DNA of 64,000 bases from Heterodontus francisci (Eukaryota), in assembly GCF_036365525.1 (NCBI RefSeq), contig NC_090373.1, forward strand, positions 11,791,221-11,855,220. The letters are read 5' to 3'. The notes beneath the pieces are model-generated. The model was not told where the DNA came from, did not search any database, and saw nothing but the letters and a program-made list of their open reading frames with translations. Positions 2,548 through 53,007 of this stretch are shown here, piece after piece (position 1 is the first letter of the stretch; each line of letters begins with the position of its first letter). A program made the position numbers and the translations under genes.

Positions 2548-2916
2548 GGGAAGCGGTGGCATAGTGGTAATGTCACTGGACTGGTAATCCAGAAGCTTAG
2601 GCTAATGCTCTGGGGACATGGGTTAGAATCCCACCATGGCAGATGGTGAAATTTGAATTCAATTAATAAAAATCTGGAATTAAAACCTAATGGTGACCAT
2701 GAAATCATTGTCAATTGTTGTATAAACCCCTCTGGTGTGTTAATGTCCTTACCTGGTCTGGCCTACATGTGACTCCAGACCCACAGCAATGTGGTTGACT
2801 CTTAAAATGCCCTCTGAAATGGCCGAGCAAGCTACTCAGTTTCAAGGGCAATTAGGGATGGGCAATAAATGCTGACTTAGCCAGCGATGTCCACATCCCA
2901 TGAATGAATAATAAAA
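2548..2916 (+). mobile_element. tRNA-derived SINE sharing head, body and tail with the 20133-23376 LINE
   Basis: A box tggcatagtgg 2557-2567 and B-box-like ggttagaatcc 2621-2631; body matches 20220-20431; tail matches 23300-23376. Confidence 0.9.
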
Positions 2917-8912: not shown

Positions 8913-9083
8913 TTTTTTTTATTTGTTTATGGGATGTGGGCATCGCTGGCCAGGCCAGAATTATTGTCCATCCCTAATTGCCCTTGAGAAGGTGGTGGTG
9001 AGCTGCCTTCTTGAACCGCTGCAGTCCATGTGGGGTAGGTACGCCAACAGTGCTGTTAGGAAGGGAGTTCCAGGATTTTGACC
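8913..9083 (-). mobile_element. 3' fragment of the same LINE family
   Basis: Reverse complement of the tail from gggtcaaaatcctggaac to cacatcccat plus A-run. Confidence 0.85.
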
Positions 9084-9244
9084 CATACACACCAGAGGAG
9101 ACAAGTTAGGCCAAATGGCCTGTTTCTGTGTAAGATAGGTAAATGAATTATAATGTACGTTTTGCATCCAGTGTATAGTTTTCTCCTTTACAGGTTGGTA
9201 TGTCACTGGACTAGTAATCCAGAAACCCAAGCTAATACGCTGTG

Positions 9245-11072: not shown

Positions 11073-11683
11073 AATACTCTGTGGACATGGGTTTAAATCC
11101 CACCATGGCAGCTGGTGGAATTCAAATTTAATTCATAAATTCAATTATTTAATTGTTAAAAATCTGGAATTGAAAGCTAGTCTCAGTAAGGGTGACCACG
11201 AAACTACCGCCAATTGTTGTAAAAACTCATCTGGTTCACAAATGTCCTTTAGGGAAGGAAATCTGCCGTCCTTACCTGGTCTGGCCTACATGTGACTCCA
11301 GACCTAGAGCAATGTAGTTGACTTTTAACTGCCCTCTGAATTCAGTTGCCAAGGGCAATTAGGCATGGACAACAAATGCTTCCTTGCCAGCGATGCTCAC
11401 ATCCCATGAAACAAATAAAAAAAACAAAAATGCACTTTCTATGTTGGTGCAGCATGTTTATTATAAAATAGACACTCATTATTTTGCATTTTCCATGATC
11501 TTTACTGGAGCTAGTTATTTTCATGACTGCTGTTAGGTTCTGTGTTTACATTGCCACACTTTGCATTAAGGAATCACAGTTTGTAAATTTGGCAGTTGAT
11601 GTGCTCAGCATTGCTTTTGGCTAAAATGTGACTCACTTGTCCTTCCTTGTTTCATCCCGCTTTCCCTCATGTTTTTTGTTTAG

Positions 11684-18251: not shown

Positions 18252-19785
18252 TGGTTCAATGAAGAGTGCAGGAGAGCATGCCAGGAGCAGCACCAGGCGT
18301 ACCTAAAAATAGGGTGCCAACCTGGCGAAGCTGCAACACAGGACTAGATACATGTGAAACAGCCGAAGCAGCATGCTATAGACAGAGCTAAGCGATCCCA
18401 CAACCAACGGATCAGATCAAAGCTCTGCAGTCCTGCCATATCCAGTCGTGAATGTTGGCGGACAATTAAACAACTAAACAAAGGAGGAGACTCCACAAAT
18501 ATCCCCTTCTTCGATGATGGGGGAGCCCAGCACATCAGTGCAAAAGACAAGGCTGAAGCATTTGCATCATTGTCGGCCAGAAGCGCCAAGAGGATGATCC
18601 ATCTCGGCCTCTTCCTGAGGTCTCCAGCATCACAGATGCCAATCTTCAGCCAATCCGATTCACTCTACATTGATATCAAGAAATGGCTGAAGGCACGGGA
18701 TACAGGAAAGGCTATGGGCCCTGACAACTTGCCAGCTGTAGTACTGAAGACTTGTTCTCCAGTATTAGCTGCACCTATAGCCAAGCTGTTCCAGTACAGC
18801 TACAACACTGGCATCTACCCAACAATGTGGAAAACTGTCCAGGTATATCCTGTCCTCAAAAATCAGGAAAAATCCAACCCGGCCAATTGCCACCCCATCA
18901 GTCTACTGTCAAACATCAGCAAAGTGATGGAAGGTGGCACTGACAGTGCTATCAACCGGCACTTACTCCGCAATATCCTGCTCACTGATGCTCAATTTGT
19001 GTTCTGCCAGGGCCACTCAGCTCCATAGCTCATTACAGCCTTAGGACAAACATGGACAAAAGAGCTGAATTCCAAAAGTGAGGTGAGACTGACTGCCCTT
19101 GACATCAAGGAAGCATTTGACCGAGTATGGCATCAAGGAGCCCTAGCAAAACTGAAGTCAATGGGAATCAGGGGGAAAACTCTTCACTGGCTGGAGTCAT
19201 ACCTAGCACAAAGGAAGATGGTTGTGGTTGTTGGAGGTCAATCATCTTAGCTCCAGGACATCACTGCAGGAGTTCTTCAGGGTAGTGTCCTAGGCCCAAC
19301 CATCTTCAGCTGCTTCATCAATGACCTTCCTTCAATCATAAGGTCAGAAGTGGGGATGTTCGCTGATGATTGCACAATGTTCAGCACCATTTTCAACTCC
19401 TCAGATACTGAAGACGCCCATGTCCAGATGCAGCAAGACCTGGACAGCTTTCAGGCTTGGGCTGATAAGTTGCAAGTAACATTCACGCCACGCAAGTGGC
19501 AATGACCATCTCCAGCAAGAGAGAATAAAACCTTCCCTTGACATTTAATGGCCTTCCCATCACTGAATCCCCACTATTAACATCCTAGGGGTTACCATTG
19601 ACCAGAAACTGAACTGGAGTAGCCATATAAATACCGTGGCTACAAAAGCAGGTCAGAGACTGGGAATTCTGAGGCGAGCAACTCACCTCCTGTCTCCCCA
19701 AAACCTGTCCACCATCTACAAGGCACAAATCAGGAGTGTGATGGAATACTCTCCACTTGCCTGGATGAGTGCAGCCCCAACAATA
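18252..19785 (+). mobile_element. Internal fragment of the same CR1-group LINE family (RT region)
   Basis: Colinear with about 21388-22910; MFADD region present; stops and frameshifts. Confidence 0.9.
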
Positions 19786-20140
19786 CCCAATACCGGGCTA
19801 GGCAGAAGCGGGTTTGCCACCAACTTTTATGTCGGTGGCGAATTCCCATCCGCCTAAGGAAAAATCCAGCCCAATAGATTAATAGATTAAGTGTATGGGC
19901 AAAACTGTGGCAAATGGATTTCAATGTAGGCCTTTGTAGGGTCATCCACTTTGGATCTAAAAAGGATAGAACTGGGTACTTTCTAAATGGCGAAATGCTA
20001 GAAATTCTGGAGTCCAAAGAGACTTGAGGGTCCAGGTACACAGACCATTAAAATACTATGAACAAGTACAGAATATAATCAAAAAGGCTAATGGAATGAT
20101 GGCCTTTGTATATAGAGGACTGGAATACTAGAATAGGTGG

Positions 20141-20215
20141 TGGCGTAGTGGTATTGTCACTGGACTACTAACCCAGAGACCCTGGGTATTGGTCTGGGGA
20201 CATGGGTTCGAATCC
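20141..20215 (+). promoter_or_regulatory. Type 2 RNA polymerase III internal promoter (A box TGGCGTAGTGG, B box GGTTCGAATCC)
   Basis: Direct match to the canonical tRNA A-box and B-box consensus. Confidence 0.85.
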
Positions 20216-20435
20216 CACCACAGCAATTAATAAATCTGGAATTAAAAAGCTAGTCTAATGATGGCAATGAAACCATTGTCGATTGTTGTAAAAACCATCT
20301 GGTTCACTAATGTCCTTTAGGGAAGGAAATCTGCTGTCCTTACCTGGTCTGGCCGACTTGTGACTCCAGACCCACAGCAATGTGGTTGACTCTTACATGC
20401 CCTCTGAAATGGCCTAGCAAGCCACTCAGTTGTAA

Positions 20436-23313
20436 CTAACTGCTACGAAGTCAATAAAAAGGAATGAAACCGGACGGACCACCCGGCATCGACCTAGGAA
20501 CCGGAAACGACAATGGCAAACCCAGCCCTGTCGACCCTGCAAAGTCCTCCTTACTAACATCTGGGGGCTTGTGCAAAAGTTGGGAGAGCTGTCCCACAGA
20601 CTAATCAAGCAACAGCCTGACATAGTCATACTCACAGAATCATACCTTACAGACAATATCCCAGACACTGCCATCACCATCCCCGGGTATGTCCTGTCCC
20701 ACCGACAGGACAGACCCAGCAGAGGTGGTGGCACAGTGGTATACAGTAGGGTGGGAGTTGCCCTGGGAGTCCTCAACATTGACTCTGGACCCCATGAAGT
20801 CTCATGGCATCAGGTCAAACATGGACAAGGAAACCTCTTGCTGATTACCACCTACTGCCCTCCCTCAGCTGATGAGTCAGTACTCCTCCATATTGAACAG
20901 CACTTGGAGGAAGCACTGAGGGTGGCAAGGGCACAGAATGTACTCTGGGTGGGGGACTTCAATGTCCATCACCAAGAGTGGCTCGGTAGCACCGCTACTG
21001 ACCGAGCTGGCCAAGTACTAAAAGACAATATATGCCAGAAAGGGTATGTGGCAGGTGGTGAGGGAACCAACAAGAGGGGAAAACATACTTGACCTCGTCC
21101 TCACCAGATGCATCTGTACATGACAATAGTGGTAGGAGTGACCACTGCACAGTCCTTGTGGAGACAAAGTCCCACCTTCACATTGGCGATACCCGCCTTC
21201 ATGTTGTGTGGTACTACCACCGTGCTAAATGGGATAGATTTCGAACAGATCTAGCAATGCAAAACTGGGCATCCATGAGGCGCTGTGGGCCATCAGCAGC
21301 AGCAGAATTGTACTCAACCACAAACTGTAACCTCATGGCCCAGCATATCCCCACTCTACCATTACCATCAAGCCAGGAGACCAACCCTGGTTCAATGAAG
21401 AGTGCAGGAGAGCATGCCAGGAGCAGCACCAGGCATACCTCAAAATGAGTTGAAACCTGGTGAAGCTACAATACAGGACTATCTGCATGCCAAACTGCAT
21501 AAGCAGCATGCAATAGACAGAGCTAAGCGATCCCATAACCAACGGATCAGATCTAAGCTCTGCAGTCCAGCCACATCCAGTCGTGAATGGACAATTAAAC
21601 AACTAACTGGAGGAGGTGGCTCCACAAATATCCCCATCCTCAATGATGGGGGAGCCCAGCACATCAGTGTGAAAGATAAGGCTGAAGCATTTGCAACAAT
21701 CTTCAGCCAGAAGTGCCGAGTTGATGATCCATCTCGGACTCCTTCTGCAGACCCAGCTTCACAGGTGCCAGACTTCAGCCAATTCAATTCACTCCGCATG
21801 ATATCAAGAAACGACTGAAAGCACTGGATACTGCAAAGGCTATGGGCCCTGACAATATTCTGGCAATAGTACTGAAGACCTGTGCTTCAGAACTTGCCGC
21901 GCCCATAGCCAAGCTGTTGCAGTACAGCTACAACACTGGCATCTACCCTGCAATGTGGAAAATTGGCAAGGTATGTCCTGTACACAAAAAGCAGGACAAG
22001 TCCAACCCGGCCCATTACAGCCCCATCAGCCTACTCTCAATCATCAGTAAAGTGATGCAAGGTGTCATCAACAGTGCCATCAAGCGGCACTTGCTTAGCA
22101 ATAACCTGCTCAGTGACGCTCAGTTTGGGTTCCGCCAGAGCCACTCAGCTCCATATCTCATTACAGCCTTGGTTCAAACATGGACAAAAGAGCTGAATTC
22201 AAAAGGTGAGGTGAGAGTGACATCAAGGCAGCATTTTACCGAATATGGCATCAAGGAGCCCGAGCAAAACTGGAGTCAATGGGAATCAGGGGAAAAACCC
22301 TCCGCTGGCTGGAGTCATACCTAGCGCAAAGGAAGATGGTTGTGGTTGTTGGAGGTCAATCATCTGAGCTCCAGGACATCACTGCAGGAGTTCCTCAGGG
22401 TAGTGTCCGAGGCCCAACCATCTTCAGCTGCTTCATCAATGACCTTCCTTCAATCATAAGGTCAGAAGTGGGGATGTTCGCTGATGATTGCACAATGTTC
22501 AGCACCATTCGTGACTCCTCAGATACTAAAGCAGTCCGTGTAGAAATGCAGCAATACTTGAACAGTATCCAAGCCTGGGCTGATAAGTTGCAAGTAACAT
22601 TCACGCCACACAAGTGCCAGGCAATGACTATCTCCAACAAGAGAGAATCTAGCCATCTCCCCTTGACATTCAATGGCATTACCATCGCTGAATCCACCAC
22701 TATCAACATCCTAGGGGCTACCATTGATCAGAAACTGAACTGGAGTAGCCATATAAATACCATGGCTACAAGAGCAGGTAAGAGGCTGAGAATCCTGCGG
22801 CAAGTAATTCACCTCCTGACTCCCCAAAGCCTGTCTACCATCTACAAGGCACAAGTTAGGAGTGTGATGGAATACTCTCCACTTGCCTGGATGGGTGCAG
22901 CTCCAACAGCACTCAAGAAGCTCAACACCATCCAGGACAAAGCAGCCCGCTTGATTGACACCCCATCTACAAACATTTACTCCCTCCACCACTGACGCAC
23001 AGTGGCAGCAGTGTGTACCATCTACAAGATGCCCTGCAGAAACGCACCAAGGCTCCTTAGTCAGCACCTTCCAAACCCGCGACCTTTACTAACTAGAAGG
23101 ACAAGGGCAGCAAATGCATGGGAACATCACCACCTGCAAATTCCCCTCCTAGTCACACACCATCCTGACTTGGAACTATATCGCCGTTCCTTCACTGTCG
23201 CTGGGTCAAAATCCTGGAACTCCCTTCCTAACAGCACTGTGGGTGTACCTGCCCCACATGGACTGCAGCGGTTCAAGAAAGCGGCTCACCATCACCTTCT
23301 CAAGGGCAATTAG
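20436..23313 (+). pseudogene. Frameshifted APE-RT ORF of the tRNA-headed LINE
   Basis: ORF pieces 20571..21092, 21089..21448, 21402..21818, 21842..22324, 22279..22995 and 23002..23313 join into one endonuclease plus RT protein. Confidence 0.88.
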
Positions 23314-23879
23314 TGCTGGGCAATAAATGCTGGCATAGCCAGCGACGCTCACATCCCATGCATGAATAAAAAAAAACAATTGAGTAGAAATCGTGCTTCA
23401 GCTTAACAAAGCCCTGGTTAGACCACACCTGGAGCACTGTGAGCAGTTCTGGGCACTGCACCTTAGGAGGAATATATTGGTCTTGGAGGGAATGCAGTGT
23501 AGATTTACCAGGATGTTGCATGGATTCCAAAGGTTAAATTATGAGAACAGATCACACAAACTAGGGTTGTATTCTGTGATATTAAGGGGAACAAATAGAG
23601 TAGATAAGAGAGAATCTATTTCTGCTGCTTGGGGACTCTAAGACCAGGTGTCATAGTCTAAAAATTAGAACCAGAACTTTCAGGAGTGAAATTAGGAAAC
23701 ACTTCTACACATAAAGGATGATAGAAGTTTGGAACTCTCTTCTGCAAACAGCAGTTGATGCTAGACCAATTGTTAATTTTAAATTGGAGATTGATAGATT
23801 TTTGTTAAGCAAAGGTATTAAGGGATATGGGGCAAGGGAGGGTATATGGAGTTATGGAATGTGAAAAGTTGGATTAGGT

Positions 23880-24906: not shown

Positions 24907-25371
24907 TTTTTAAAATTCATTCTTTGGATGTGAGTGTCACTGGCAAGGCCAGCATTTAACGCCCTTCCCTAATTGCCCATGAAAAGGTGGTGGTGAACTA
25001 CCTTTATGGACCATTGCAGTCCATTTGGTATTGGTACACCCACAGTGCTTTTTTCTGTAGTGGTTTGATACAACTGAGTGGCTTGCTAGGCCATTTCAGA
25101 GGGCAGTTAAAAGTTGTGGGTCTGGAGTCACATGTAGGCCAGACCAGATAAGGACGGCAGATTTCATTCCCTGAAGGACATTGGTGAACCAGTTGGGTAT
25201 TTACAGCAATCTGGTAGTTTCATGAGTCTTCATGAGACTAGCATTTTATTCCAGATTTATTTATTAATTGAATTTAAATTACCCGAGCTGCCGTGATGGG
25301 ATTTGAACTCATGCCTCTGGAGCATTAGTCCAGGCCTCTGGATTACAAGTCCAGTAACATTACCACTATGT
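24907..25371 (-). mobile_element. Longer variant of the same SINE, keeping extra LINE-derived sequence
   Basis: Reverse complement reads ...gccactcagttgtatcaaaccactacagaaaaa|agcactgtgggtgtacc...gggcaattaggg. Confidence 0.82.
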
Positions 25372-39899: not shown

Positions 39900-40310
39900 T
39901 TTTAAAGTTAATTCTCAGGATGTGGGCATCGCTGGTAAGGCAGGCATTTATTGACCACCCTTAGTTGCCCTGTGAAGGTGATAAATTCTTCAACGACAGC
40001 AGTCTGAGACAACTGAAGGGTCATCTCAGAGGGTAGTTAAGCATCAACTAGTTTGGCATGGGACTGGAGTCACATATAAACCAGTCCAGGTGAGCTCAGC
40101 AGGTTTCCTTCCCATTAGCAAAGCAGGTCAAACAGATGGGTCTTGCTGACAATCTGACAGCTTCCTGGTCAGTTTTACTGAAGCCGGTTTATTTATTTTT
40201 GCAACTGAATTCAAATTCTTATAGTTCATGGTAGGGTTTGAATTCACATTCTCCTGCCCTATTAATCGAGATCTCTGGGTTATTAGTTCAATAACATAAC
40301 CACTGTTAAG
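39900..40310 (-). mobile_element. Diverged copy of the same SINE family
   Basis: ggatgtgggcatcgctgg tail and ctggagtcacatat body, on the reverse complement. Confidence 0.7.
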
Positions 40311-44829: not shown

Positions 44830-47505
44830 ATGAACATACGATCGTATGAATTAGGAGCAGAAGTAGGCCATTCGGCCCCTCAAGCCTGCTCCGCCATTCA
44901 ATAAGAACATGGCTGATCTGTTTGTGTCTCGAACTCCACTCTCCCATCTACCCCCAATAACCTTTGATTCCCTTGCTTAACAAGAATCTATCTACCTCCA
45001 CCTTAAAAATATTCAATGACCCCATTCAATGACCCCGCCTCCATCACCTCCTGAGGCACAGAGTTCCAAAGTTGCTCAACTGTCTGAGAAAAAAAATTCT
45101 CCTCATCTCTGTCCTAAAAAGGCGACCACTAATTTTAAAACAGTGCCCCCTAGTTCTGGACTCACCCACAAGAGGAAACATCCCCTCCACATTCACCTTG
45201 TCAAGACTGTTCAGGATCTTATATACTTCAATCAAGTCTCCTCTCACTCTTCTAAACTCCAGTGAAAACAAACCCAGTCTGTCCAACCTTTCCTCCAAAG
45301 ACAACCCGCTCATTCCAGGTATCAATTTAGTAAACCTCCCCTGAACTGTCTCCAACGCATTTACATCCTTCCTTAAATAGGGAGATCAAAACTGCACACA
45401 GTATTCAAGATGTGGTCTCACCAATGCCCTGTATAACTGAAGCATAACATCCTTACTTTTATTTTCAATTCCTCTTGTAATAAAGGATAGCATTCCATTA
45501 GCTTTCTTTATTACTTGCTGTACCTGCATACTAACTTATTGTGACTCACTCACTAGAACACCTAGATCCCTCTGCACCCCGGAATTCTGCAGTCATTCTC
45601 CGTTTAAGTAATACACTGCTTTTTTATTCTTCCTGCTAAAGTGAACAACTTCACATTTACTCACATTATACTTTGTGCAATAACCCTTTATGTTGAACCT
45701 TGTCAAATGTCTTCTGGAAATCCAAGTACAGTATGCCAACAGGCTCCCCTTTATCCACTGTGTATGTTACTCAAAGAACAAAAGAACAAAGAACAGTACA
45801 GCATAGGAACAGGCCATTTGGCCCTCCAAGCCTGCGCCGATCTTGATGCCTTAAAACCTTCTGCACTTCCGGGGGGAAAAAATTCAATAAATTGGTTAAA
45901 CATGATTTCCCTTTCACAAAACTGACTATTCCCGACTACCTAGAAATTTTTTAAGTGCTCAGCTATAACCTCCTTAATGATCGATTCTAACACTTTCCCC
46001 ACGACAGGCATCAATCTAACTGGTCTATAGTTACCTGTTTTCTGCCTCTCACCCTTCTTGAATAGAGGGGTTATATTTGCTACTTTCCAGTCTGATGGAA
46101 CCTTTCCAAAATTAACACCAATGCATCTACCACCTCATTAGCCACCTCTTTTAAGACCCTCGGGTGTTATCCATCAGGACCCAGGGACTTGTCCGTCTGC
46201 AGCTCCATCAGTTTGCTCAGTACTGCTTCCCTGGTGATTGTAATTTCACCAAGTTCCTCTTTTCCTTCCACCTCCTGATTTACAGCTATTACTGGAATGT
46301 TTTTTGTATCCTCGATAGTGAAGACAAAAGCAAAATATTTGTTCCTTTTATCCACCATTTCCTTATTATCGACTGTTAACTCACCATTCACACTCTCTGG
46401 AGGACCAACACTCACTTTACTTACTCGTTTCCTTTTTAAATACCCATAATCCTTAGACAGCACCTTCCAAACCCGTGACATCTACCACCTCGAAGGACAA
46501 GAGCAGCAGATGCATGGGAACATCACCACCTGCAAGTTCCCGTCCAAGCCACACACCATCCTGACTTGGAACTATATCACCGTTCTTTCACTGTCGCTGG
46601 GTCAAAATCCTGGAACTCCCTTCCTAACAGCACTGTGGGTGTACCTACCTCACATGGACTGCAGCGGTTCAAGAAGGCAGCTCACCACCACCTTCTCAAG
46701 GGCAATTAGGGATGGGCAATAAATGCTGGCCTTGCCAGTGATGCCCACATCCCATGAATGAATAAAAAAAAAGAAACTCTTGCTAACCATTTTTACATTT
46801 CTAGCTAGCTTCCTCGCAGACATTAATTTATTTCTCCTAATTAACGCTTTAGTCATTCTCTGTCGTTCTTTATATTCTGACCAATCATCTGACCTGCAAC
46901 TCACCTTTGCGCAATTATGTGCTTTTTCCTTAAGTTTGATGCTTTCCTTAACTTCTTTAGTTAACCACAGATGGTGGGTCCTCTCCTTAGAAATTTTCTT
47001 TACAGTAGGAATATACCTATTCTGAGTATTCTGAAATATCCCCTTGAATGTCTGCCATTGCTTCTCTATTGATCTATCTCCTAGCCTCGTAACCCAGTAC
47101 ACTTCAGCTAGCTCAGATTTCATGCCCACATAGTTGCCCTTATTTAAGTATAAAATACTAGTCTTAGACCCACTCTTCTCTCTTTCAAACTGGATGTAAA
47201 ATGCAATCATATTGTGGTCGCTGCTACCTAGAGGTGCCTTTTCTGTGAGGTCATTAATTAATCCTATCACATTACACAATACCAAGTCTAATATAACGTG
47301 CTCTCTGGTTGGTTCCAGAATGTGCTGCTCTAAGAAACTATCTAGAAAGCATTCTATGAATTCCTCATCCAGGCGACTATTGCCAGTCTGATTTTTCCAG
47401 TTTATATGGAGATTAAAATTATCCATGATTATTGTCATCCCTTTATCACAAGCACCCAATATTTCTTCTTGTATACTTTGTCCTACATTGTGATTACTGT
47501 TAGGG
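44830..47505 (-). mobile_element. Large classical CR1 ORF2 fragment (APE to 3' end) with deletions and nested inserts
   Basis: IIMDNFNLHINW..PTREHVILDLVL..LGSSDHN (APE); FSLEFRRVRGDLIEVYKI (3' part). Confidence 0.88.
46449..46772 (+). mobile_element. 3' fragment of the same LINE family inserted into a classical CR1
   Basis: Tail plus A-run; the host CR1 reads KSF|YGYLK across the insertion with no TSD. Confidence 0.88.
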
Positions 47506-48033
47506 GGAAATGGTGGATAAAAGGAACAAATAATTTGCTTTTGTCTTCACTATCGAGGATACAAAAAACATTCCAGTAATAGCTGTAAATCAGGAGGTGG
47601 AAGGAAAAGAGGAACTTGGTGAAATTACAATCACCAGGGAAGCAGTACTGAGCAAACTGATGGAGCTGCGGACTGACAACTCCCTGGGTCCTGGACTACA
47701 CCCTAGGGTCTTAAAAGAGGTGGCTAATGAGGTGGTAGATGCATTGGTGTTAATTTTTCACAGAGCTGTTAGGAAGGGAGTTCCAAGATTTTGACCCAGT
47801 GACAGTGAAAGAACGTCGTATATAGTTCCAAGTCAGGGTGGTGTGTGACTTGGATGGGAACTTGCAGGGGTGATGTTCCCATGCATCTGCTGCTCTTGTC
47901 CTTCGAGGTGGTAGAGGTCACGGGTTTGGAAGGTGCTGTCTAAGGAGTATGGGTATTTAAAAAGGAAAAGAGTAAGTAAAGTGAGTGTTGGTTCTCCAGA
48001 GAGTGTGAATGGTTAGTTAACAGTCGATAATAA
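47506..48033 (-). repeat. Inverted, circularly permuted copy of 46108-46637
   Basis: 47506-47758 is the reverse complement of 46108-46362; 47759-48033 is the reverse complement of 46363-46637. Confidence 0.88.
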
Positions 48034-49060
48034 TAGCGCAGAAGGAAGATGCAGGGTTGTGTTGTTGGAGGCCAATCATCACAGCCCCAGGACATCACTG
48101 CAGGAGTTCCTCAGGGTGGTGTCCTAGGCCCAACCATCTTCAGCTGCTTCATTAATGACCTTCCCTTCATCATAAGGTCAGAAGGGGATGTTCGCTGCTG
48201 ATTGCACAATGTTCAGCACCATTTGCAACTCCTCAGATAATGAAGCAGTTCGTGCCTGCATGCTGCAAGACTTGAACAACATCCAGGCTTGGGCTGATAA
48301 GTGGCAAGTAACATTTGTGCCACACAAGTGCCAGGTAATGACCATCTCCAACAAGAGAGAATCTAACCATCTCCCCTTCATGTTCAACAGCATTACCATC
48401 GCTGAATCCCACACCACCAACATCCTGGGGGTTACCATTGATCAGAAACTTAAATGGACCAGCCACATAAATACTGTGGCTACAAAAGCAGGCCAGAGGC
48501 TGGAATTCTGCAGTGAGTAACTCACCTCCTGACTTCCCAATCTCTGTCCACCATCTGCAAGGCACAAGTCAAGAGTGTGATGGAATATTTTCCACTCGCC
48601 TGGATGGGTGCAGCTCCAACAACTCAAGAAGCTCAACACCATCCAGGACAAAGCAGCCCGTATGACTGGCATCCCATTCACCACCTTAAACATTCATTCC
48701 CTTCACCACTGGCATACAGTGGCAGCAGTGTGTACCATCTACAAGATGCACTGCAGCAACTTGCCATGGATCCTTTGACAGCATCTTCCAAATCTGCGAC
48801 CTCTACCAACTAGAAGGACAAGGGGAGCAGATGCTTGGGAACACCACCACCTGCAAGTTCCCCTCCAAGTTACACACCATCCTGACTTGGAACTATATCA
48901 CCATTCCTTCACTGTCGCTGGGTCAAAATCCTGGAACTTACTTCCTAACAGCACTGTGGGTGAACCTACCCAACATGGACTGCAGCTGTTCAAGAAGGCA
49001 GCTCACCACCACCTTCTCTAGGGTAATTAGGGATGGGCAATAAATGCCAGCGACACTTTT
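48034..49060 (+). mobile_element. 5'-truncated copy of the same CR1-group LINE family
   Basis: Colinear with about 22322-23350, including the gggcaataaatgc tail. Confidence 0.9.
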
Positions 49061-51597: not shown

Positions 51598-51930
51598 CCT
51601 TTTTATTCATTCATGGGATGCGGGCATCACTGGTTAGTCCTGCATTTATTGCCCATCCCTAACTGCCCATGAGAAGGTGGTGATGAGCTGCCTTCTTGAA
51701 CCGCTGCAGTCCGTGTGCTGTAGGGACACCCACAGTGCTGTTCGGAAGTTCCAGGATTTTGACCCAGCGACAGTGAAGGAACAGCGATATAGTTCCAAGT
51801 CAGGATGGTGTAATGCTTGGAGGGAACTTGCAGGTGGTGGTGTTCCCATGCATTTGCTGCCCTTGTCCTTCGAGGTGGTAGAGGTCACAGGTTTGGAAGG
51901 TGCTGTTGAATGAGCCTTGGTGTGTTGCTG
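51598..51930 (-). mobile_element. 3' fragment of the same LINE family
   Basis: Reverse complement matches about 23040-23376. Confidence 0.85.
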
Positions 51931-53007
51931 CACTGCTTGAGGTGAGAGGACCTCTGGCCGCTCGGGTGGTAGTGAGGGGGAGTGTTGGGCAGAGGCTGAT
52001 GGAAGGTGAGTGACAGCAACAGTAGTTGAGTGGGAAGTAGAAAGGGAGAGAGGTAGGGGTAGTGATGGGGGTGAGGGATGATAGAGAGGGGGAGGGGTAG
52101 TTAGTGGGAAGATGGGGAAGGGGATATGACGGGAGTGAGGGGATGTATGAGTGTTTTGGCGGGTGATGAGGAGATGGGAAAGGAGCAGCTGAGGGTCAGA
52201 GTTTCCCCGCAGCCCCCACTCTGAAAGGAAGGTTGTAGCCATTGGTGACCACTCTCTCCACTAGCCCTCTCCAAGACACCAACTACCTCCTACCCAGACA
52301 GAAAAACAGGATAAGGAGCAGAAAGGACGGAAAAAGAAGCAAAGGATGAAGAAGAATTGCAGGTAGGGAAGAAGTAGCAAAGGGAAAGAGTGAGCTAGGT
52401 GAAAAGACACAGCGAGAAACAAGATCTGGGGGTGTACATTGTACATCAAAAACATCTAAATACTGACATATTAATTCACTAGCTATATCTCTAAACTAGA
52501 TTCACTAATGGCTCTGCTCTCCAGTGCTGTCCTTCCTCTCCAACCCTGGAAGTGCTGACCCCACTCTCAATCCTCGCACTTTCCTACTTAGCCTCTGCCA
52601 TGTGCTGCTCGCCTCCCCAGTATGTTAAACTAAATACACCAAACTGTGCCAAGGGCAATGATAGGCAGCTCTCCAGAACACAGAAGTTTAAATATCCTGC
52701 TGTTTGAAGGTAGAGATGATTCCACCAACAAAAATTGCAAAGAAAAATCACAAACAACAGCAAATCAAATTTCTCTAGCGCTGCTCGGACCTGCACACTT
52801 TACATTCAGGATGTGTTTGTTGACAAAGGCAACCACTAGATGGTGCACTACTTGCACATGCTCAAATGCAGAGTCATTGACTGAAACAACACTGTCAGCA
52901 ATGTCTCAGGGAGGTGCCTGTAATAAAGATGGCGCTGCTCAATCTTACACAGAAGAGTGAATAAACTCTGCATTGGCAAGTTCCATTTGGTGTGTTTTGG
53001 AGTCTGA

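Follow-up and report, generated by a model that had tools for sequence, protein, structure and literature searches.

The locus considered here lies in a 64,000-nucleotide stretch of Heterodontus francisci DNA (assembly GCF_036365525.1, contig NC_090373.1, positions 11,791,221 to 11,855,220 of the forward strand), which we call the window and in whose numbering locus positions are given. It holds a copy of a long interspersed nuclear element (LINE) of the Zenon type that opens with a tRNA-like head, runs through a non-coding body into one open reading frame (ORF) for an apurinic-type endonuclease (APE) and a reverse transcriptase (RT), and measures 3.25 kb (20133-23376; Table 1). The head carries the A box TGGCGTAGTGG (20141-20151) and the B box GGTTCGAATCC (20205-20215) of a type-2 RNA polymerase (Pol) III promoter, and the tRNA-like gene at 20136-20226 is the sole ARAGORN call in the whole 64 kb; Rfam returns for the head only a weak match to the tmRNA/tRNA clan (14.9 bits, where the gathering score is 47). 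Pfam recognizes both the endonuclease (PF03372, E 3e-11) and the RT (PF00078, E 5e-23), the main ORF ends at the TAG at 23311-23313 and the A-run occupies 23368-23376. The region of the small 3' hairpin does not exceed its shuffles in stability (z -1.41; 17 of 200 do as well). A preliminary description of this DNA had listed the same anatomy, from the A and B boxes through body, APE, RT and stop to hairpin and A-run, and every feature was found again where it had been placed. It had also proposed a candidate autonomous protein-coding element. The ORF of the family has been under selection, but for this particular copy the proposal falls: the ORF is spread over several frames, comparison with 43 relatives reveals 8 internal deletions besides small insertions, and the head has lost the first few bases of the family 5' end as well as 20 nt after 20225. 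This copy is dead and no longer autonomous.

Table 1. Features of the Zenon copy, of its CR1 host and of the SINE (short interspersed nuclear element) derivatives in the window
Feature	Position	Strand	Remarks
Head derived from a tRNA, boxes of a type-2 Pol III promoter	20133..20226	+	A and B boxes, ARAGORN
Conserved non-coding body	20227..20446	+	common to LINE and SINE derivatives
A-rich stretch, then arginine-rich N-terminal extension without AUG	20447..20543	+	main frame
Short AUG-led ORF of 46 codons	20464..20604	+	other frame, overlaps main ORF
APE endonuclease and reverse transcriptase, single ORF	20544..23313	+	Zenon type, broken here
3' untranslated region	23314..23376	+	AATAAA 23322-23327, small hairpin 23329-23343, A-tail
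Host CR1, older, left part	19878..20128	+	
Host CR1, older, right part	23377..23820	+	continues left part
Long SINE copy (~470 bp)	24907..25370	-	first ~340 and last ~140 bases of the element
Short SINE copy (~380 bp)	2548..2916	+	head and body joined to last ~75 bases

The flanks of the element belong to an older CR1 that is contiguous in most of 19 CR1 relatives and split at the element in the window; therefore, the element inserted as one piece. No target-site duplication was found at the locus in the comparison with these 19 relatives, and across the family such duplications do not rise above the control (a score of at least 8 is reached by 4 of 50 copies and by 3.5% of 2450 mismatched pairs). 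At the joint between CR1 and head (20120-20135) there are about 5 extra bases that look as if the last 8 host bases had been repeated in tandem, with no matching duplication on the 3' side.

The arrangement seen in the window recurs across its own 6.0-Gb genome, for which first-look candidates are not copy numbers and the best 40 were scored for each query. With head, body and the start of the APE as the query there were 7656 first-look candidates, and 38 of the 39 non-self matches scored cover the query from the head onward, with identities of 89-93%. Full-length examination of 73 fetched loci identified 50 copies complete from head to tail, about 3.27 kb long and set in unrelated flanks with the exception of one duplicated pair, 45 of them with a sharp 5' end at a run of G. 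An endonuclease-only query, chosen so as not to select for the head (5875 candidates, best 40 scored), retrieved 39 non-self copies, 20 headed and 19 truncated within head or body, which have no other 5' sequence in common, on a comparison that took in part of the upstream pairs; the one similar upstream pair lies in a tandem repeat on one contig. When the APE of an older subfamily was used, the best 20 of 39 were fetched, 17 being headed and 3 truncated. The conventional 5' untranslated region (UTR) or ORF1 that the preliminary description had named as the alternative is absent from all of these 39 + 20 copies selected by the endonuclease alone. Starting from the head alone, 26 of the 29 copies fetched (of 39) run on into the ORF. 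Moreover, three sites in the head are linked to sites in the ORF (Fisher P down to 5e-6), a linkage that weakens towards the 3' end; therefore, the copies are partly mosaic. These complete copies and linked variants show that retrotransposition carries head, body, ORF and tail together, in a unit of 3.27 kb, as had been proposed from this single locus. A one-off chimera, or a LINE nested into a SINE at this site, could appeal to the SINEs with the same head and body that are common in the window; however, the junction of head and ORF lies at dozens of loci with unrelated flanks and in the published consensus of other species, so that it is not the private junction that the preliminary description had allowed for, and this explanation is refuted and retains hardly any probability.

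The 5' truncation points of the APE-selected copies cluster at element positions 92-113 (6 of 19) and 300-340 (8 of 19), both A-rich, which suggests that ends were joined by microhomology or that the RT stalled at the structured body. Within the window, an older partial Zenon copy, 86% identical and on the same strand, lies just upstream of the element (18252-19790), and Zenon 3' fragments are found at 8913-9085, 46450-46772, 47759-47947, 48034-49047 and 51600-51932.

The coding capacity of the family was assessed on an alignment of 44 copies (6 of the 50 were dropped for length) with a mean pairwise identity of 93.4%. Whether an intact ORF exists at the family level, a question raised in the preliminary description, is answered by the frame at 20418-23310 (about 975 codons, from the TAG at 20415 to the TAG at 23311), in which no stop is common to 30% of the copies; one natural copy retains 937 open codons. 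Non-CpG variants of the ORF present in at least 5 copies comprise 32 nonsynonymous and 35 synonymous changes, against 1131 and 397 among singletons, and therefore point to purifying selection in the source copies. This pattern shows that the ORF has been kept functional in source copies. Between body and endonuclease there are about 36 codons of open, arginine-rich frame devoid of AUG; ahead of the endonuclease no in-frame AUG is common to the 44 copies, and most copies have none for the ORF. In 8 of the 44 the TAG at 20415 reads GAG, which would bring two AUGs of the body into frame, and the AUG at 20464 is kept in 41 of the 44, its ORF having 46 codons in 31. Differences between subfamilies in the N-terminal extension are few and point to neither frame as the coding one.

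Its sequence identifies the family as the Zenon LINE that Stuart et al. (2026; PMC13343379) describe from elasmobranchs. These authors report Zenon elements from five elasmobranchs that are more than 84% alike, lack formal annotation in repeat repositories and are all devoid of ORF1 and provided with a poly-A tail, the latter unique to Zenon among CR1-group elements. The family studied here likewise has a single ORF for APE and RT, no ORF1 and a poly-A tail, and the main elasmobranch consensus sequences (CarCar_, RhiTyp_, ScyCan_, SquAca_ and HypSab_Zenon) have nearly its length (3244-3314 nt, against about 3.27 kb). Since ORF1 absence and poly-A tail are universal in Zenon elements, neither is part of the oddity of this one; the preliminary description was right about the missing ORF1 and mistaken in counting it as unusual. 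The consensus rows in the supplement of PMC13343379 were compared by eye over their first 400 nt. Head and body open all seven elasmobranch rows (one each from white shark, whale shark, catshark and stingray, three from dogfish), which match the window in head, body, the TAG at the end of the body and the basic N-terminus; two motifs of the window match the elasmobranch consensus exactly, and the A and B boxes are kept in the five species while the sequence between them differs. None of the three contrast rows, two from hagfish and one from coelacanth, has the head within these 400 nt, where they show T-runs. Therefore, the head would predate the split between sharks and rays. The parts of PMC13343379 compared make no mention of a head, T-run avoidance, an AUG-less start or SINE derivatives; the word 'tRNA' has no match in its text and supplement, nor 'polymerase III' in its main text. 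Thus, the Zenon sequence is already in print, and its head, the constraint on T-runs and the link to SINEs appear to be undescribed; the literature searched, which excluded Repbase, Dfam and most subscription journals, yielded no description of a tRNA-headed coding LINE.

Beyond these elements, gene-model fragments of sevengill shark and manta ray match the Zenon ORF at 82-83%, and full-length protein relatives reach at most 36% identity. Among solved structures, the search gave only L1 ORF2p and R2. No close relative was confirmed by a single-protein query on metagenome and viral contigs, and an alignment query on the same contigs gave 80 distant loci, none of them matched by profiles of head or body. 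Four relaxed ARAGORN calls at the distant loci fall inside ORFs or on the other strand, and the B-box-like word that precedes L248, the nearest relative, is not a head. The sevengill shark (aldo-keto reductase-like) and manta ray gene models (P0005/P0043) take pieces of the Zenon ORF as exons and are probably annotation artefacts in this respect. In two distant single-ORF relatives (P0006, P0009) the endonuclease is preceded by a fused PHD finger (PF00628).

The head and body of the element also occur in SINEs. The long SINE, of which 21 copies were examined, departs by about 11% from its own majority and has a short A-rich filler between its two parts, and in the short SINE element base ~326 is joined to the last ~75. 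In two loci (L227 and L231) head and tail meet at a breakpoint peculiar to the copy, and the sequence on either side of it has 94-97% identity to a young LINE copy; therefore, internal deletion of the LINE yields SINE-sized copies. The joint of a third head-tail copy (L233) is the common one of the short SINE. At the family level the SINEs hold almost nothing absent from the LINE, and descent from LINE to SINE is therefore favoured over the opposite direction, though unproven. As to the features of SINE2 elements, the A/B-box tRNA-related head is present here, and a short (<~600 bp) non-coding sequence belongs to the deletion derivatives only. Two further short-SINE copies, 5'-truncated and made of body and last ~75 bases, lie at 11156-11425 and 39918-40113. 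By eye, the head of the long SINE at 24907-25370 is nearer to that of SquAca_Zenon-1 of dogfish than to the young LINE head of its own genome, as if it preserved an older state. A Deu/SacSINE1 label for the body was rejected: the body bears no resemblance by eye to the Deu alignment in the supplement of PMC7245038, and two Deu motifs gave only chance-level matches, none within the body. Assignments to Meta or UCON3 were also rejected by eye.

SINE RNA could, in turn, be the origin of the head if the latter were a passenger acquired over and over again, the RT switching from the RNA of an unheaded master LINE to abundant SINE RNA. In an unrooted and weakly supported tree of heads (4 of 53 branches starred) the long-SINE heads form a clade of their own and the short-SINE heads are mixed among those of the LINE, a mixing in keeping with such exchange, as are the mosaic copies with their fading linkage and the 8 of 19 truncations near the joint of body and ORF. 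However, the position of this joint does not vary between young and older subfamilies or among five species, 59 APE-selected copies yielded no unheaded 5' UTR, head variants go with ORF variants, and the best matches to the head are LINEs and not SINEs (26 of 29). Repeated acquisition is thereby largely refuted and seems to us very improbable.

Pol III terminates at T4 or TCTTT (PMC10572872). Over the 3270 nt of the element no TTTT is shared on the sense strand, against 21 AAAA, 15 CCCC and 13 GGGG positions, and shared TCTTT and 5-of-6 T motifs, both absent from the sense strand, number 2 and 11 on the antisense strand. Only 4 TTT are shared in the ORF. In the four copies subjected to shuffling that keeps protein and codon usage, 4-7 TTT are observed where 15-17 are expected (P <= 0.0005), with AAA, CCC and GGG normal in the same shuffles. 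The resulting ratio (0.25-0.41 of expectation) is lower than in each of 48 unheaded relatives with ORFs of at least 600 codons (minimum 0.67, median 1.0; 4 of the 48 have P <= 0.01), all of which contain TTTT. In copies of the own genome T4 climbs with decay from 0.10 to 0.39 of expectation, and no T4 site is common to the older ones. Phenylalanine makes up 2.0% of the Zenon ORF, against a minimum of 2.5% among 39 relatives. This avoidance of T-runs matches what transcription by Pol III would predict.

On the evidence of the sequence, the most likely reading, and one we believe probable, is that of a Zenon LINE transcribed by Pol III and translated non-canonically. Several points weigh against it. 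Transcript start, strand and polymerase were not observed, the sequencing runs examined being contigs; 15 of the 24 listed runs contain at least half of the sequence words, under several organism codes, and the absence from 4 runs of any listed piece bridging the joint of body and ORF has, in contigs, no bearing on expression. The lack of TTTT is not significant by itself (shuffle P(0) 0.05-0.09) and remains weak when that of TCTTT is added (0.03-0.05), and a laxer neutral-codon null, which also flags A-runs, is unspecific and was set aside. Furthermore, the Zenon family constitutes one evolutionary sample, the relatives used as controls are distant (25-40% identity) and come from other organisms, with no close unheaded sister among them, and the CR1 that served as a control has decayed and contains more T. 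At one site 11 of the 44 copies have TTTT, although in a context of CpG decay. No fixed 3' terminator is apparent either: between AATAAA and A-tail, a T-run of at least 4 is found in 11 of 38 tails and a single T in 19, and the T-runs near the A-tail may be due to slippage in it. Many tails (L092, L096, L115, L120, L132, L142 and others) have a variable T-run, of up to 13, before the A-run, which would be slippage or a terminator remnant. Finally, if uncapped, a 3.3-kb RNA in which many AUGs lie upstream and none in frame leaves the route of translation unexplained, and the T-poor sense strand could stem from selection against Pol II processing signals.

This last possibility belongs to a different account, in which the element is equally one unit and is made by Pol II, from an internal promoter in head or body or by read-through from a host gene. 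The head would then be an RNA module, cut by RNase P to give a precise 5' end or else protecting or localizing the RNA, and the T-poverty would reflect avoidance of U-rich polyadenylation or splicing signals. A capped RNA would be easier to translate, and to our knowledge all LINEs are Pol II transcripts or Pol I co-transcripts. Head and body do fold beyond their shuffles (z -2.25; 0 of 100 as good), the AATAAA of the 3' UTR is conserved in 40 of 44 copies, and butterfly Zenon is described, by way of its deletion derivative, without tRNA homology or Pol III promoter (PMC6740152). However, two further AATAAA, which 33 and 31 of 44 copies share in the first 350 nt, would be awkward for Pol II, the depletion is specific to T-clusters and goes far beyond that of the 48 relatives, presumably made by Pol II, the A and B boxes, though by eye not the sequence between them, are kept in five species, and the in-frame AUG that a capped mRNA normally uses is missing. 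Transcription by Pol II is the main alternative in our assessment, and a rather unlikely one.

If the element is indeed a Pol III transcript, the internal A and B boxes would have the polymerase start at the 5' G-run and transcribe the whole 3.3 kb, which would be possible because the sense strand is purged of T-run terminators. The transcript would pass the A-tail up to the first T-run in the flanking DNA, or be polyadenylated via the AATAAA, and the uncapped RNA would be translated by a non-AUG start, by re-initiation or by a -1 shift from the overlapping short ORF. The protein would then bind the 3' hairpin and insert the element by target-primed reverse transcription, hairpin binding and this mode of insertion being established LINE biology. 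A more encompassing proposition, which we consider about evenly balanced between true and false, is that ever since the ancestor of sharks and rays the family would have existed as an autonomous and wholly Pol III-made 3.3-kb coding RNA, recoded with fewer phenylalanine codons, translated without cap or in-frame AUG, and direct parent of SINEs by internal deletion with no separate capture of a head.

BovB elements with SINE-derived ends are said to exist and may constitute a precedent. In Lepidoptera, a single-ORF Zenon has given rise to short elements made of its 5' and 3' ends with a poly-A tail, as here (Wang et al. 2019; PMC6740152); nevertheless, these Persaeus elements are reported without tRNA homology or Pol III promoter, whereas the same deletion in the shark family gives a tRNA-headed SINE directly. 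The bipartite-LINE model (Kojima 2018; PMC5786205) likewise derives SINE body and tail from the two ends of a LINE. In the account given there, the 5' parts seen in SINEs are those of RTE and Vingi only, and a template switch supplies the small-RNA head afterwards, unlike the situation here, in which the coding LINE carries the head itself. The SacSINE1/DeuSINEs of sharks (Luchetti et al. 2017; PMC5499810) have a tRNA head, a body, a LINE-type tail and a length similar to that of the long SINE, which is probably a different family, as judged through the Deu alignment and not through the sequence of SacSINE1 itself. T+ SINEs, whose Pol III transcripts are polyadenylated (Borodulina et al. 2023; PMC10572872), share with the elasmobranch Zenon the A/B-box promoter, an AATAAA near the 3' end and an A-tail; they are described as short, non-coding, restricted to placentals and equipped with a fixed T-run terminator before the tail, in contrast to the 2.9-kb ORF and the apparent lack of a fixed terminator in the family studied here.

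For genome annotation, these results imply that each copy would be divided by repeat maskers into one SINE and one LINE, and that the T-run constraint skews codon-based analyses of the Zenon family. The division between LINEs, coding and transcribed by Pol II, and SINEs, non-coding and transcribed by Pol III, is the basis of retrotransposon classification. Should the Pol III reading prove true, a coding element whose tRNA head is constitutive and whose sense strand is free of terminators would represent a natural case of a long translated RNA made by Pol III, and both the translation of uncapped RNA and the origin of SINEs would become testable in one construct.

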